Of a DNA stretch of 5,996 nucleotides, positions 1-5,996 are shown in pieces (the first letter of the stretch is position 1; each line of letters starts with the position of its first letter). Source of the stretch: a virus. Taxonomy: Duplodnaviria; Heunggongvirae; Uroviricota; Caudoviricetes. The notes beneath the pieces were generated by a model. That model saw only the letters and a program-made list of their open reading frames with translations. It did not search any database and was not told the origin of the DNA. Made by a program: the position numbers and the translations under genes. The DNA lies in IMG/VR virus record IMGVR_UViG_2690316066_000017, positions 1-5,996 of that record. The stretch is one strand, 5' to 3'.

Positions 1-2
1 AG

Positions 3-548
3 TCCTGCATATCCCTGGAAGAAGCACCACCGGCAAAACAGCAGATTGTCTGTAGTCGCAGTTTTGGTGAACGAATCACAGACAAAGATGCCATGCACCA
101 GGCTGTTGTTCAGTATGCTGAGCGGGCCGCAGAGAAACTACGTGGGGAGCGTCAGTATTGCCGGCAGGTGACGACATTTGTACGGACATCCCCCTTTGCA
201 GTAAAAGAACCCTGTTACAGCAATGCCGCTGTGGAAAAGCTTTCATTGCCCACACAGGACAGCCGGGACATTATTGCCGCCGCATGCAGAGCCTTAAACC
301 ATGTCTGGCGTGAAGGGTACCGCTATATGAAGGCAGGAGTCATGCTGGCTGATTTCACACCATCGGGTATAGCGCAGCCGGGATTATTTGATGAAATCCA
401 GCCCCGTAAAAACAGTGAAAAGTTAATGAAAACACTCGATGAACTGAACCAGTCGGGAAAAGGGAAAGTGTGGTTTGCGGGGCGAGGAACCGCCCCTGAA
501 TGGCAAATGAAACAGGAAATGCTATCGCCTTCGTATACAACACAATAG
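3..548 (+). CDS. umuC: Y-family translesion DNA polymerase, UmuC/MucB/ImpB/SamB family, C-terminal part (5' end lies outside the window)
   Basis: The reading frame is open from position 3 with no stop before TAG at 546-548; the ORF-track start at 93 is only the first internal Met. The translation (...WFAGRGTAPEWQMKQEMLSPSYTTQ) matches the conserved C-terminal region of UmuC-type proteins as I recall them. No umuD-like gene is visible because the upstream region is outside the window. Confidence 0.85.
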   Translation, partial: SCISLEEAPPAKQQIVCSRSFGERITDKDAMHQAVVQYAERAAEKLRGERQYCRQVTTFVRTSPFAVKEPCYSNAAVEKLSLPTQDSRDIIAAACRALNHVWREGYRYMKAGVMLADFTPSGIAQPGLFDEIQPRKNSEKLMKTLDELNQSGKGKVWFAGRGTAPEWQMKQEMLSPSYTTQ

Positions 549-568
549 ACTGAGATCCCCATTGCTTC

Positions 569-586
569 ATTCTGATATATCAGAAT
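569..586. terminator. 18-bp perfect palindrome (attctgatatatcagaat) followed by a T6 run (589-594) between convergent umuC and stbB; possible weak intrinsic terminator for the + strand transcript
   Basis: Perfect dyad seen directly in the sequence: 7-bp AT-rich stem, 4-nt loop, then aaTTTTTT on the + strand. It overlaps the last codons and stop of stbB (580-582). Confidence 0.3.
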
Positions 587-972
587 AATTTTTTCATTTT
601 AAGACGCACATCATTCATTGCCTCCTGCACCGAATCAGTAGCAGAAGGAGGCATTTTTTCAGCAAATTGCGAAGCACCGAGTTCAGTCAACACAGCTCTG
701 ATATCGGCCTGAGAAGGCTTCCATCCAGTCGTCTGACTGAGTAAGGTTACAACCTGATCTGCTGAAAACTCCTCGCTCAAAATGGCAGTCAGCAATACAG
801 GCAGGCGAGGATCAAGTTGGTGTAACGCCATTCCAGAAATAAATGCATTCCGGAACAGCTCACCACGCTCAGAACGCGGAACGGACTCTATCGCTTCCAA
901 AGTTTGAAAGTCTGCAGCTTTTTCCGGATGCAGATAAAGTGTGTATTTTTTCCTTTTCCGTTCATCGTCCAC
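580..972 (-). CDS. stbB: StbB/ParR-like partition adaptor protein (DNA-binding partner of StbA)
   Basis: Sits immediately downstream of the ParM-like gene in the same orientation, the classic parM-parR order. It is a small protein with a basic N-terminus. The ORF track begins at a TTG at 1008, overlapping stbA by 32 nt; I prefer GTG at 972-970, which lies 4 nt after the stbA stop and is preceded by a strong SD (AAGAGGAG, 7-nt spacer). Stop is TGA at 580-582. Confidence 0.6.
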   Translation of the reverse strand: MDDERKRKKYTLYLHPEKAADFQTLEAIESVPRSERGELFRNAFISGMALHQLDPRLPVLLTAILSEEFSADQVVTLLSQTTGWKPSQADIRAVLTELGASQFAEKMPPSATDSVQEAMNDVRLKMKKLF

Positions 973-976
973 AATA

Positions 977-1948
977 TTACTCCTCTTTGAAAGCCGCGAT
1001 AGCTTCAACCAGTGCTGTCTGTGGCGACTCCATCATCACTACTTTTTGCCCAAGATGGTGCCATGCCGTTTTTATCGAATCATAGATCAACGGGGCCCCA
1101 CCACCGACAACATAAACACGATTCACATGATGGAAATCACCGAGCTCATTGACTACTTGCTCCCCCAAACTGGCAATAGCCCCCTCAATGGTATTAAGGA
1201 CCAGATCAGTTTTTGTTTCGTCATTTATAACCTGCCGAACAAAGTCCGGGTCATTACGACGTTTAATCAATTCATCTGCAACGAGGAAACTGGTATCACT
1301 GGATGCCATGCGCAATGCACTCATTGCAGCTTTCGTAACTGAAGATACACCAATGCCAGAATTACCATGAATGGCACTTACAGAGTCAAATTGACCAACG
1401 ATAACACCAACATCAAGCGTAGTGCCGCCAATATCAACTACCAGCGATTTTTCGAACTGACCAACTTTATCCACGACCAGACGAGAAAACACAGCTGGCA
1501 ATGATTCAGGCATCACATCAACGTGTTCAATGGTGAAAACATCGCCTTTATTAAGACGAATCGGCCCCATTAAATTCTCAATTTTACGCTGAATGTTGAG
1601 TTCATTTTTTTGACACTCTTTCGTATAGAACTCACTGATAGGCAAAGTCACAGTCAATGATACAGGCTGAGGCGCTAATCCACTATTCAGTAAAGCGTGA
1701 TGCACAGCTAACAGGTTAACATCCGTATATTGATACTCAATATGAGTCGTAAGAATAGATTGGTTGCTAACTTCATCATACGTGTATTTTTTACCATCCA
1801 GTTCATAGTTAAATGTCTGGCGAATTCCTAACCCGTCAACCTTCCATCCATGACGAAATGAGTTTTGCGACAACGACTTACAGATTTCCCCATTATCATT
1901 CCATGCCAACTTGATTGTTGTTGAACCATCATCGCAGTATACGTTCAT
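977..1948 (-). CDS. stbA: StbA/ParM-family actin-like segregation ATPase (type II plasmid partition)
   Basis: 323 aa. The N-terminus MNVYCDDGSTTIKLAW resembles the ParM phosphate-1 motif (DDGSTxxK), and downstream DIGGTTLD and VVGGGA motifs are typical of the actin/ParM fold. ATG at 1948-1946 is preceded by AAGGGG SD; stop is TAA at 979-977. Confidence 0.85.
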   Translation of the reverse strand: MNVYCDDGSTTIKLAWNDNGEICKSLSQNSFRHGWKVDGLGIRQTFNYELDGKKYTYDEVSNQSILTTHIEYQYTDVNLLAVHHALLNSGLAPQPVSLTVTLPISEFYTKECQKNELNIQRKIENLMGPIRLNKGDVFTIEHVDVMPESLPAVFSRLVVDKVGQFEKSLVVDIGGTTLDVGVIVGQFDSVSAIHGNSGIGVSSVTKAAMSALRMASSDTSFLVADELIKRRNDPDFVRQVINDETKTDLVLNTIEGAIASLGEQVVNELGDFHHVNRVYVVGGGAPLIYDSIKTAWHHLGQKVVMMESPQTALVEAIAAFKEE

Positions 1949-1961
1949 CTATAGCCCCTTA

Positions 1962-2019
1962 AATACTCAATCTGAGTAAATCATTGTTTCTGGTTGCAAT
2001 GTAATACTCAATTTGAGCA
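1962..2019. repeat. Two copies of a 15-bp palindromic element (AATACTCAATcTGAG at 1962-1976 and AATACTCAATtTGAG at 2003-2017), 41 bp apart, in the stbA leader
   Basis: Direct repeat with one mismatch, seen in the sequence. Each copy contains an inverted repeat (tactca-N3-tgagta; the second arm of copy 2 is tgagca). Operator- or centromere-like geometry upstream of stbA. Confidence 0.6.
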
Positions 2020-2076
2020 CTATCATAGTTATGAAATCACAAAACACAAGTATTATTTATTACATCACATGACACA

Positions 2077-2097
2077 CTTCATATTTCATACTTCATA
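2077..2097. repeat. Three tandem heptamers (CTTCATA TTTCATA CTTCATA); a related 9-mer CATACTTCA recurs at 2087-2095 and 2145-2153
   Basis: Counted directly in the sequence. The repeats flank the 2112-2136 dyad. Iteron-like, possible ParR/StbB binding (parC-like) or repressor sites. Confidence 0.5.
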
Positions 2098-2111
2098 AAT
2101 ATGAACACATA

Positions 2112-2140
2112 TTGACACCTCAGGTTACCGTGTCAAAATA
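2112..2140. promoter_or_regulatory. Inverted repeat TTGACAC-N11-GTGTCAA giving consensus -35 hexamers (TTGACA) on both strands; candidate promoter/operator for the parA-like gene (+) and/or stbAB (-)
   Basis: TTGACA at 2112-2117 (+) and its mirror at 2136-2131 (-). A weak -10-like caaaat at 2134-2139, with TG at 2131-2132, lies 16 bp downstream on the + strand. SD GAGG at 2168-2171 precedes the ATG at 2177. Confidence 0.35.
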
Positions 2141-2176
2141 TCATCATACTTCACACATCATATTTATGAGGTTGCA

Positions 2177-2416
2177 ATGATTACTGTAGTTGGTGGGAAC
2201 AAAGGTGGTTCAGGGAAAACTACCATTGCATCAAACCTGGCTATTGCTCTAGCAAATAAAGGAAGGGAAGTCTGCCTGTTAAACGGAGATCTACAACGAA
2301 CAGCCGCAAAACATCATGCGGAACGAGAAGCTGCAGGACTGTTACCAGCAATAACCCTTGTTGAGAAATTTGATATGCTGATATCAAAGCTGCTGTCATT
2401 GTTGATGTCTGCATAA
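2177..2416 (+). pseudogene. N-terminal fragment of a ParA/MinD-superfamily Walker-type ATPase (type I partition-like), truncated at the junction with P2-like DNA
   Basis: Begins MITVVGGNKGGSGKTT, a deviant Walker A motif (KGGxGKT) at the extreme N-terminus as in small ParA proteins. The ORF is only 79 aa, whereas ParA proteins are roughly 200 aa or more. Its 3' end overlaps the oppositely oriented R fragment, and composition shifts to GC-rich near 2405-2415. Confidence 0.55.
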
Positions 2417-2691
2417 AACGTGAAGCCCTTTTTCTGGCCTTCGTCGGTGGTCATGATGTCGGGCTGATTTTCCCGCAGCCACGCCAGCACCGGCACGATG
2501 AGCAGGTCAAAATCACCGGTAAAGTCGGTCACAATGACATTGAGCGTGTAACGCTTTTCAAATGACAGCGACGCCGCCAGTGTGGAGGCAATACTCCCGT
2601 TATCCACGAATATCCGCAGCATCTCGGGACTGGTTTTCAGCACCGTGACGGCATCAGTCAGCGCCCTGCGCAGGCTGTCGGGTTTGAGCAT
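2314..2691 (-). pseudogene. R: P2 gpR-like tail completion protein, N-terminal fragment; the ORF tail downstream of about 2405 is read-through into unrelated AT-rich DNA
   Basis: Occupies the position after lysC in the P2 late-gene order (K-lysA-lysB-lysC-R-S). Starts at ATG 2691-2689 with an AGGA SD. At 125 aa the ORF is shorter than the roughly 155 aa I recall for gpR, and its C-terminal codons overlap the parA-like fragment on the other strand. Confidence 0.5.
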
Positions 2692-2944
2692 CGTTTTCGT
2701 CCTGACAGTGTTTAATCATTTTTACCTGGCTGGCACAGCGCGCCAGCGCGTTCTCAAGCTGCCGGATATCGGCACTTAAATCGCCGTTCGTCTCCGGGGC
2801 GCTGCCCGGCATCGGGCAAAGACTCACTTTCGGGCAGGCGTTGGGGACAATCACTGGCGTCGGTGCAGGCGGGGCGCTGGTGCAACCGGCGCACAGCATC
2901 AGGCAGGTCAGCGCCGTACCAGCGGCGAAAATCTTCGTTTTCAT
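2654..2944 (-). CDS. lysC: Outer-membrane lipoprotein spanin (Rz1/LysC-like o-spanin)
   Basis: 96 aa. Signal peptide with lipobox (…LMLCAG|C) followed by a Pro-rich segment (TSAPPAPTPVIVP), typical of Rz1. Starts in the +1 frame inside lysB and runs past the lysB stop (overlapped spanin architecture). ATG at 2944-2942 has a GAGG SD. Confidence 0.7.
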   Translation of the reverse strand: MKTKIFAAGTALTCLMLCAGCTSAPPAPTPVIVPNACPKVSLCPMPGSAPETNGDLSADIRQLENALARCASQVKMIKHCQDENDAQTRQPAQGAD

Positions 2945-3224
2945 TCAGTAACCTCGTGATGGTTTTCTCGCGCTGTGCTTCACGCTTCGCCGCGTTCTCC
3001 AGTTCCTGACGCAGTGCCACCTGCGCCAGCTCGTTTTTGTCTGCTCTGGTGAGGGCAACATGAAGCTGATTTTTCAGCATGGTGATGGTCGTCTGCTGCC
3101 CGCTGGCGACGTTGTTCGCCCTGTCCAGCGAGGTGCGCAGGCTGGCGTTTTCATGCTTCGCCAGAAACAGACCGGCCACCGCCAGCGATAACAACACGAC
3201 CAGCACAATCATCAGCTTTGACAT
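2754..3224 (-). CDS. lysB: Inner-membrane spanin (Rz/LysB-like i-spanin)
   Basis: N-terminal transmembrane helix (MIVLVVLLSLAVAGLFLA), then a charged, coiled-coil-like periplasmic domain. Lies directly after lysA with an overlapping start. ATG at 3224 has a GAGGGG SD; an alternative ATG at 3212 overlaps the lysA stop as TGATG. Confidence 0.7.
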   Translation of the reverse strand: MSKLMIVLVVLLSLAVAGLFLAKHENASLRTSLDRANNVASGQQTTITMLKNQLHVALTRADKNELAQVALRQELENAAKREAQREKTITRLLNENEDFRRWYGADLPDAVRRLHQRPACTDASDCPQRLPESESLPDAGQRPGDERRFKCRYPAA

Positions 3225-3637
3225 GGTTCCCGCCCCTCAAAACGCTGACGACAGGCCGTACGTATCAGCCGGAAGAACACCGACGCCACGAGGTAAATCA
3301 GCGCAGTAAAAATCCACCCGGCAGCGACCAGCGAGATAAACGTCGCCACCATCACCACCAGAGCCGCCGCCCGTCTGCGCCACGGCACCGGCTGCAAAAA
3401 CAGCGACGTGACAATCTTCACGGCCAGCGATTCCGGCGGCAGCTCCCGCCCGTAGCGTTCAAGTACATACTCGGTGGCATACACGCCGACACCACCGGCA
3501 ACCACACAGATAACCGTCGCCAGAATCGCCCAGGCGGCGACAAAACTGACGGCCACGCTCTGCGGGTAAATCAGGGACAGTGCCAGCATCATCACCAGCG
3601 ACACGTTCAGCATCAGTGAAAGGGATAATTTCTTCAT
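3212..3637 (-). CDS. lysA: LysA-like polytopic membrane protein (lysis-timing accessory, P2 lysA position)
   Basis: 141 aa with about four hydrophobic transmembrane segments, located between the endolysin and the spanins exactly as P2 lysA. GGAG SD lies 8 nt upstream of ATG 3637. Confidence 0.7.
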   Translation of the reverse strand: MKKLSLSLMLNVSLVMMLALSLIYPQSVAVSFVAAWAILATVICVVAGGVGVYATEYVLERYGRELPPESLAVKIVTSLFLQPVPWRRRAAALVVMVATFISLVAAGWIFTALIYLVASVFFRLIRTACRQRFEGREPCQS

Positions 3638-3651
3638 GGTGTTTACTCCGT

Positions 3652-4149
3652 TTAAGCCGGTACGCCGCCAGCGGTACGCCAGACGGTGACCAGTTTTTCC
3701 AGTGAATGCTCACGCTGACCGTAACCGGCACCCGGCAGGGACGCCCAGATATTGCGACAGCGTGAAATGGCGCGCTCAATGCGTCCCGCCCGGATGTCAT
3801 CCAGTGCACCGCGTTCGCGGATCAACTGAATGGCGAGTCTGTCCTGTGACAACGGACTGAAATCCGGCAGGGCAAGCTGTTTGCGGTAGTGCGGCCAGAA
3901 CAGGTAAAGCTGCTGATAGCGACCGGAGGCCGTGGACTTTTCACCGCGACGGTTAAACACCTTCGCCGGTCGGCCATGCGCGAACGGGTGGTCACTGTAG
4001 TCGGTGAAAATTTCCGGCTTCCCGTCCAGTCCGGTGACTATCACGTCATAGCCCCGGTTTTTCGTCAGCGGATGATTTGCCGTCCCTTCGGACACCGCCA
4101 GCATGTCGAGAAAGGCGGCGATATTCTGATGCGTGTTAATTACCGGCAT
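3652..4149 (-). CDS. K: Endolysin, lambda R-type lytic transglycosylase family (P2 gpK-like)
   Basis: 165 aa. N-terminal FLDMLAVSEGT contains the conserved catalytic Glu of lambda-R-type transglycosylases, and C-terminal NIWASLPGAGYGQ is a conserved family block. The start ATG overlaps the holin stop (TAATG). Confidence 0.9.
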   Translation of the reverse strand: MPVINTHQNIAAFLDMLAVSEGTANHPLTKNRGYDVIVTGLDGKPEIFTDYSDHPFAHGRPAKVFNRRGEKSTASGRYQQLYLFWPHYRKQLALPDFSPLSQDRLAIQLIRERGALDDIRAGRIERAISRCRNIWASLPGAGYGQREHSLEKLVTVWRTAGGVPA

Positions 4150-4430
4150 TACGGTTTCCCCCTGCCCTTAAAGCGGCGCTGAATGGCAATCTCAATCACC
4201 TGATAACCGGCGATACCCAGCATGGAGCCGATGCCGCACACCGCAGGCAGTGACAGGTCAGGAAACTGCACCAGAACAACACCGGCAACCATCGAGACAA
4301 AACCACCGAGCAACATGCGCCCGATAAACAGACGCGGGGTGATGGGTTCACCACCGGCAAGCACCTTGCCGACAACAATCAGCACCCCAATCATAAAAAG
4401 CGACAGGACGCTTTTTTCTTCTGCTGTCAT
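4149..4430 (-). CDS. Y: Holin (class I, three transmembrane segments; P2 gpY-like)
   Basis: 93 aa with three hydrophobic segments and a basic C-terminal tail (QRRFKGRGKP). Immediately upstream of the endolysin and translationally coupled to it. GGGAG SD upstream of ATG 4430. Confidence 0.8.
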   Translation of the reverse strand: MTAEEKSVLSLFMIGVLIVVGKVLAGGEPITPRLFIGRMLLGGFVSMVAGVVLVQFPDLSLPAVCGIGSMLGIAGYQVIEIAIQRRFKGRGKP

Positions 4431-4433
4431 GCG

Positions 4434-4637
4434 TTACTCCCACAGATTGACAGTTTCAGCCACGGGCGCGGTCTGAACGTCGGGCAGTTCGACGGCGGTG
4501 CCGTGCGGCAGCACTGCACCCAGTTCAGCCAGTCCCGGATTTGCGGCGAGCACGGCTTCGACCACGCCCTCAGTGCGCCCGTAATACCGGACACAAATGG
4601 CGTCGAGCGTGTCGCCCTGTAGCGCAAAGGTCTTCAT
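4434..4637 (-). CDS. X: P2 gpX-like small tail protein (LysM-like)
   Basis: 67 aa from the internal ATG at 4637-4635 (MKTFALQGDTLDAICVRYYG...), which overlaps the L stop as TGATG. The 90-aa extension in the ORF track would overlap L by 69 nt and is not preferred. Confidence 0.75.
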   Translation of the reverse strand: MKTFALQGDTLDAICVRYYGRTEGVVEAVLAANPGLAELGAVLPHGTAVELPDVQTAPVAETVNLWE

Positions 4638-5146
4638 CAGATTTGACTCACGATGCAGCGCGGTTTGTCCTGGATACGCGCCACCGCCCAGCGCATATCC
4701 CGCCACAGCTCATCAATGGTGCTGTCAATGCTGTCAGCCTTCTTGTCACCTTTCGCACTGGCATCCACGCCGCGATAACGCTCATAAAGCGACGCGGTCG
4801 CCATCGCACACACGGCGCGCTCGTAGTAAAAAACTTTGATGCTTTCACCGTCGATATCGTCCGCCGGGACGTCCGCCAGACACGTAAAACCGGCGGCAAT
4901 TTTCTGTTCGCGGTACTCGTACAGCTCCGCATTTGTCTCCGCCATGCCTGACTTGATGGCCTCACGCAGACGGGCGGGGGCGACGGTCTGCTCAAGGCGC
5001 ATACGTTCCCGGACGCGCTTCGGGTCGATATCGGGAAAAAAGAACGTGTTTTTAATCACCGGCTCGTCGCCTGCCGGTTGCGGGATGACCACCGTACCCT
5101 CACCGGACACGGGAGCCTCCTTTCGCGGAATAATCAGCGTCATCAT
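4637..5146 (-). CDS. L: P2 gpL-like head completion protein
   Basis: 169 aa from the ATG at 5146-5144 (MMTLIIPRKEAP...), preceded by a GAGG SD. The ORF-track start at 5206 adds 20 residues with no SD. Position and size fit P2 gpL. Confidence 0.75.
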   Translation of the reverse strand: MMTLIIPRKEAPVSGEGTVVIPQPAGDEPVIKNTFFFPDIDPKRVRERMRLEQTVAPARLREAIKSGMAETNAELYEYREQKIAAGFTCLADVPADDIDGESIKVFYYERAVCAMATASLYERYRGVDASAKGDKKADSIDSTIDELWRDMRWAVARIQDKPRCIVSQI

Positions 5147-5245
5147 GACTACCTCAGAAAAGTCGGGCGGTGGACGCCGGTGCAGTGTCAGGTGATTCAC
5201 CCTCACTGACCGGCGTGCCGCCCTGGCGCGGGGCGCATTCGGTTG

Positions 5246-5428
5246 TTAACTGGCTTTCTTTTTCGGGCGTCCACGTTTTGCCGGTGTCACGCTCCGGGTC
5301 TTACGCGGGGCGCGGGTGGCCGCTTTGGGCTGCGGCTCCGGCTTCGGTTTCAGCTCCCGCTCCAGTCGTTCAATCTCTTTTTTGACGCCTGCCTGACAGT
5401 CGAGCTGTGTCGCACGTTGCAGGTGAGC
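5246..5428 (-). pseudogene. M: C-terminal fragment of a P2 gpM-like terminase small (endonuclease) subunit, truncated at its 5' side by the junction/ambiguous bases
   Basis: Only about 60 codons remain before the stop at 5246-5248, and the frame enters the N stretch at 5429-5438. Its position upstream of L matches P2 order (O-N-M-L). The C-terminus is very basic with an AT-hook-like KRGRPKKK. Identity as M is inferred from position and memory, not verified. Confidence 0.45.
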
Positions 5429-5438
5429 NNNCNNANNN
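5429..5438. other. Stretch of ambiguous bases (nnncnnannn) exactly at the boundary between P2-like DNA and the fimbrial usher fragment
   Basis: Seen directly in the sequence. GC-rich phage-type sequence lies to the left and AT-rich usher sequence to the right. Confidence 0.95.
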
Positions 5439-5439
5439 G

Positions 5440-5996
5440 CCACGGCCCAATGTTAATTCCCGGTTCCAAACTGGCCCAGAAATTATCTGACGTTGTTTTC
5501 TCATAATGTTGAAATTCTGAATGTCCTGCCTCTACCTGCCAATTTAGCAAAAAAGTTGATATTCCGTCTTCCCATATCAGGTCGGAAGCAACTCCTCTCA
5601 ATGGTGAACGAATTGCTACTTGAGGGATACTAAGCACTAATTTCTGCGCTTCAAACAGAAACTCTTCGGTTGCTTGAGGAATTACAGATAAATCTGCACA
5701 TTGTCTTTCATCTTTTTTTCCATAATGCGAGAGGAAAAGTTTAGGGTATTTCTCTGTCTTCACCCCATAACGCATTAACAACTCCTCACTTAAACAAGCC
5801 TTTAAATAAGGTTTTCCATTACTATGTTCGGCATGGAAAAATATATCCTCTGAACCCACAATAGTTCCATTTAGAAAAATATCGACTGGATAAATGCCGG
5901 GAAGTTGCCCTCCATTTTCAAAAAGAGTTAGGTCTACTCCCTCCCCTCTTCTCTTTAGCAAAGATGCATCGAATGAATATGTCTTTCCATCTGAAT
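5440..5996 (-). pseudogene. Fimbrial usher (PapC/FimD-family outer-membrane usher), N-terminal region; the 5' end lies beyond the window and the 3' end is truncated at about 5440
   Basis: The translation contains the usher N-terminal hallmarks (DLTLFENGGQLPGIYPVDIFLNGT ... LNWQVEAG ... GINIGPW). The reading frame stays open upstream of the ORF-track TTG at 5961 through to the window edge (...SDGKTYSFDAS-LKRRGEG...). Homology stops at the N stretch, after only about 220 codons of a protein that is normally about 800 aa. Confidence 0.75.

Follow-up and report, generated by a model that had tools for sequence, protein, structure and literature searches.

The question raised by this locus was whether a fragment of a fimbrial usher gene and a fragment of a P2-like phage gene, which meet at a short stretch of ambiguous bases, had been brought together by recombination or by sequence assembly. 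The window, by which we mean the whole 5,996-bp stretch of DNA that was analysed, corresponded to the entire contig CDRY01000017.1 of the E. coli draft GCA_001373235.1, which was recognised by an exact protein look-up with the ORF at 2177-2416, and the retrieved locus was identical to it.

Native locations of the three parts of the window

One closed genome, that of E. coli O111:H21 strain 15A, gave the best match for each of the three parts of the window when 5,426 complete E. coli genomes and 72,556 plasmids (PLSDB) were searched with BLAST. The first part, segment A (1..2375, plus strand), was collinear with positions 79047-81421 of the pAA-type virulence plasmid pDEC15A-1 (NZ_CP077478.1), with a BLAST identity of 99.8% and a single mismatch, at position 2000. 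According to the annotation of strain 15A, it contains the 3' part of umuC (1-548, plus strand), a partition/stability gene (580-972, minus strand), parM (977-1948, minus strand) and the 5' end (66 codons) of a gene for a ParA-like AAA ATPase (2177-2375, plus strand). Segment B, 3,054 bp in length (2375..5428, minus strand), was 100% identical, with zero mismatches, to positions 2923960-2927013 of the chromosome (NZ_CP077477.1), where a P2-like prophage is located. It carries a block of P2-like late genes: gpR' (2375-2691; Pfam P2_Phage_GpR), lysC (2654-2944), lysB (2754-3224), lysA (3212-3637), the endolysin (3652-4149) and holin (4149-4430) genes, gpX (4434-4637), gpL (4637-5146) and the C-terminal 60 codons plus stop of gpM ('terminase endonuclease subunit', 5246-5428), here called gpM'. 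Segment C (5439..5996, minus strand) was 100% identical to positions 74210-74767 of pDEC15A-1 and represents an internal fragment of agg3C, approximately codons 25-211 of 849, which runs off the contig end; the corresponding 185-aa fragment matched Pfam PapC_N (E=1.2e-31). The GC content stepped at the two junctions, being about 35-45% before the first, about 60% between them and about 40% after the second.

At position 2000, an intergenic site with parM on one side and the ParA-like gene on the other, the window has a T and strain 15A a G, and this was the only difference over 2,933 plasmid-derived bases. It follows that the contig comes from a strain very closely related to DEC15A (O111:H21, AAF/V-type pAA plasmid). 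The lysB-like ORF (2754-3224, minus strand) is intact in the window and encodes 156 aa, whereas PGAP calls lysB a partial pseudogene with a later start in the 100%-identical prophage of strain 15A; the disagreement seems to lie in the choice of start site or in the annotation, and not in the sequence.

In the native plasmid, segments C and A have the same orientation and C lies upstream of A at a distance of 4.3 kb, while the window has the order A-phage-C, so that the plasmid segments are permuted (79047-81421 ... 74210-74767) and the phage piece is therefore not a simple insertion into collinear plasmid DNA. The contig ends at positions 1 and 5996 each interrupt a unique gene, umuC and agg3C respectively, and natively these two ends face each other across 4.3 kb (74768-79046). 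In strain 15A gpM and agg3C are both intact, the former on the chromosome and the latter on plasmid pDEC15A-1; the sequences flanking the junction under study are thus not neighbours in a closed genome of this lineage but belong to different replicons.

The ambiguous stretch between gpM' and agg3C

Identity with the P2-like prophage ended at 5428 and identity with the agg3C usher gene began at 5439, in exact agreement with the breakpoint proposed in the first-pass annotation. On the minus strand the usher frame ends in ...GINIGPW beside the ambiguous bases, and the gpM-like C-terminus (…AHLQRATQLDCQAGVKKEIERLERELKPK…) starts directly to the left of them. The two frames differ in codon phase and the usher frame enters the gpM DNA out of frame, which ruled out an in-frame fusion protein. 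Neither gene is complete: from a full-length gpM (about 247 aa, beside gpN and gpL) only the last 60 codons are present, 100% identical to the gene of WP_000203453.1 in strain 15A and giving no Pfam match in so short a fragment, and from a full PapC-family usher (PapC_N, beta-barrel and PapC_C, about 850 aa) PapC_N alone was found, because here the contig end and the join both truncate agg3C. From its sequence we assign 5439-5996 to agg3C, but the copy in the window would not be a functional gene.

In BLAST searches the junction was spanned in 0 of the 5,426 complete E. coli genomes, in none of the 72,556 plasmids and in none of 50,697 phage records; all 102 matching phage records stopped at 5428. 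A scan of genome_contigs and metagenome_contigs for the two 14-16-nt flanks separated by a spacer of 0-20 nt gave 0 matches, a weak negative, genome_contigs containing one genome per species. The right junction was unique to contig CDRY01000017.1 and was not reproduced in any independent assembly or record. Thus the earlier caution that a fimbrial/phage fusion stands or falls with this junction was well placed, since its flanks lie on different replicons in a closed genome and the junction itself was found nowhere else. We found no direct or inverted repeats and no mobile-element ends at the right junction, and the phage segment had neither collinear plasmid flanks nor a mobile element, att site or repeat of note at its ends. 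A contig break at a repeat boundary at 5428 was also considered and was rejected, the L/M region being single-copy in strain 15A.

The sequence of 5429-5438 is NNNCNNANNN. The first-pass annotation had described it as ten ambiguous bases; its coordinates and its pattern were correct, but the stretch consists of eight Ns and two called bases, a C at 5432 and an A at 5435, which split the Ns into runs of 3, 2 and 3. These eight Ns were the sole non-ACGT characters in the 5,996-bp window. In a three-way alignment, the native chromosome continues past 2927013 (NZ_CP077477.1) with CAGCGCACCG, and the plasmid sequence directly before 74210 (NZ_CP077478.1) is TTTCTGATAC. The strict consensus of CAGCGCACCG and TTTCTGATAC was exactly NNNCNNANNN: the two parents carry the same base at just two columns, 4 (C) and 7 (A), and the window has an N at all eight columns where they differ. 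The next two columns, 5439-5440 (GC), likewise match in both parents. When each parent was shifted from -5 to +5, only 1 of the 121 offset pairs, the collinear one (0,0), reproduced NNNCNNANNN, and random pairs of 10-mers drawn from the two loci gave it in 592 of 2,000,000 trials (3e-4; analytic value 3.9e-4). The three-way alignment and these two controls showed that the ten columns (5429..5438) are an overlay of two native, non-recombinant sequences. Both native continuations were therefore piled onto 5429-5438, and the earlier suggestion that the interspersed Ns reflect a low-confidence consensus at a misjoin, and not a sized gap, was borne out by the match of the ten columns to the consensus of the two sequences. 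An interrupted N-run of this kind can be decoded without reads, because called bases standing exactly where the parental continuations agree indicate that two sequences were overlaid, as opposed to a gap or a patch of low coverage.

It is highly improbable that the join is a correct scaffold-level link across a small unresolved gap, with the prophage piece and agg3C as true neighbours. The stretch does have exactly ten columns, a length that scaffolders and submission rules often set as the smallest gap, so that its total span would be compatible with a former 10-N spacer. However, no uninterrupted N-run of conventional length is present, the called C and A show each side continuing into its own native gene and not towards the other, and the closed relative puts the two loci on different replicons.

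A mixed population at a recombination junction was another reading offered by the first-pass annotation; such a population, either heteroplasmy or two co-cultured variants, would give ambiguous calls at a polymorphic site. Some consensus callers do emit Ns at mixed positions, but a mixture should blur all the differing columns past the breakpoint, whereas the ambiguity was confined to ten columns between flanks (3,054 and 558 bases) that were 100% identical to single sources; this reading did not survive the comparison and we regard it as extremely improbable.

The third possibility, a genuine joint produced within 5429-5438 by illegitimate recombination between the P2-like prophage and the pAA plasmid, and blurred by overhanging native reads, is in our opinion very unlikely. 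The N pattern proves the presence of both native continuations and not the absence of a recombinant, and a strict consensus called over a true breakpoint together with overhanging native reads could perhaps give the same pattern. Nevertheless, a true recombinant molecule would miss one of the continuations at each column; no single unambiguous junction sequence was present, 8 of the 10 columns being N and both called bases fitting either parent. Moreover, in the near-identical strain 15A both flanks are intact and lie on separate replicons, the joint was found in no other record, the permuted flanks would need an 88-kb deletion or a duplication besides the insertion, and the event would have occurred without a mobile element, a repeat or an in-frame product.

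The left junction and a related draft contig

The other end of the phage segment (2375..2376), where the plasmid ParA-like gene passes into the P2 gpR gene, was clean, with zero Ns and a 1-nt overlap (the A at 2375). This junction creates two chimeric ORFs, 2177-2416 on the plus strand and 2314-2691 on the minus strand, which were found in the gene index in two contigs only, CDRY01000017.1 and CCBW01000004.1. The first of these ORFs, 79 aa in length, gave CbiA/ParA Pfam matches, and this ParA'-gpR-antisense product holds a RefSeq accession as a 'ParA family protein' (WP_283236559.1). The left-junction 31-mer was absent from the genome and metagenome contig collections, again a weak negative, and the only repeat near the junction was a 21-nt pair with 71% complementarity, none of note.

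The presence of a clean left end with a 1-nt overlap in two assemblies that share a contig end is a point in favour of a genuine recombination joint, and some rearrangement in the clone could be real. The independence of the two drafts cannot be assumed, because the identical contig end is common to both, and the two may go back to one set of reads or to one clone. There is a slim chance that the clone carries a fragment of the P2 prophage recombined into the pAA plasmid, the joint at 2375 being real and only the right end having been mangled by the assembler. If this were true, prophage DNA would have been captured by an enteroaggregative adherence plasmid via homology-free end joining.

CCBW01000004.1 (27,240 bp, from the draft GCA_000939035.1) was base-identical to positions 1-4938 of the window and had the same contig end. 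At 4938/4939 of the reversed contig it exits the phage inside gpL and enters recF-dnaN-dnaA-rpmH-rnpA-yidC-mnmE, with a 2-nt overlap. This gpL/recF joint yields a 266-aa GPL-RecF chimeric ORF. About 7.1 kb further on, at approximately 12074, the contig passes from within mnmE directly to yfiR/dgcN; these loci are adjacent in 0 of the 5,426 complete E. coli genomes. The contig thus contains at least three joins of non-adjacent loci in 12.4 kb, each with an overlap of 1-2 nt, which makes chimeric joins a characteristic of these related assemblies. That the related contig leaves the phage at another place, towards recF, and then shows a further impossible adjacency weighs against a recombination joint in the window and favours artefactual chimeras.

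Repeat collapse in a de Bruijn graph was rejected as an origin of the clean joins, because overlaps of 1-2 nt are far below any k-mer length; overlaps this short would suggest that the molecules or reads were themselves chimeric, or that a joining or gap-closing step went wrong. The umuC end of the contig is at the identical base in the two deposited assemblies, which suggests that the two share reads, or that a repeat or IS boundary peculiar to the clone lies at this position. A literature search by accession and WGS prefix found no paper describing the GCA_001373235.1 and GCA_000939035.1 assemblies.

Origin of the junction and comparison with known arrangements

Judged from the sequence comparisons taken together, the gpM'/agg3C junction is very probably an assembly misjoin, and not a recombination joint or a biological feature. 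The assembly pipeline of GCA_001373235.1 would have made a false join, in which a sequence ending in gpM and another starting in agg3C were laid end over end, and a consensus would then have been called over ten columns fed by both native continuations, giving an N where they disagreed (eight columns) and a base where they agreed (5432 and 5435). Two pipeline steps appear to be the likeliest candidates. A fixed 10-N scaffold spacer may have been partly filled by read-based polishing or consensus calling, in which case the overhanging reads from the two sides would agree at columns 4 and 7 only and just those Ns would have been replaced. Alternatively, a small negative gap in the layout may have forced an overlap of 10-12 columns. 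As a probable side effect, the longest N-run would now be three, and a scaffold join could be accepted as unbroken sequence when submitted at contig level. Whichever pipeline step was responsible, there is no phage-fimbrial fusion gene and the adjacency of gpM' and agg3C has no biological meaning.

It follows that neither CDRY01000017.1 nor CCBW01000004.1 should be cited in support of phage-plasmid recombination or of a fimbrial/terminase fusion gene, or be relied on for synteny. Chimeric 'proteins' predicted from these contigs, such as WP_283236559.1, have already entered the protein databases.

The arrangement in the window has a certain likeness to phage-plasmid recombinants, since P2-like gpL/gpM DNA with 99.5% identity to positions 5000-5428 of the window occurs on large plasmids of Klebsiella and E. 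coli, so that phage DNA on a plasmid is not implausible in principle. However, those plasmids match the phage side only (query 1-429) and none of them enters agg3C, and in the near-identical strain 15A the same phage DNA is chromosomal. The plasmids carrying gpL/gpM DNA, from Klebsiella pneumoniae and E. coli, are 120-216 kb in size and unrelated to the gpM'/agg3C junction; they may be phage-plasmids or may bear plasmid-borne P2-like prophages.

On the fimbrial side, positions 5439-5996 correspond to agg3C of the AAF/III-V operon (agg3D-agg3C-agg3B-agg5A) of the enteroaggregative E. coli pAA plasmids, with PapC_N present. Unlike the operon in its AAF/V-type form (agg3DCB-agg5A), the window retains approximately codons 25-211 of 849 only, the rest having been lost to the contig end and to the misjoin.

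The window resembles a chimeric contig or a false scaffold join in a short-read draft, in which loci from different replicons are abutted and genes are cut in the middle of their ORFs. As in such contigs, the joint was free of repeats and mobile elements, the junction was assembly-specific (the left one also being present in the related contig), and the related contig contained further joins. It differs from the usual scaffold join, marked by uninterrupted Ns, in that two called bases, which mark parental agreement, interrupt the run; as none of the N-runs is longer than 3, the join entered the database within a record classed as a 'contig'. CDRY01000017.1 is an ordinary chimeric draft contig.
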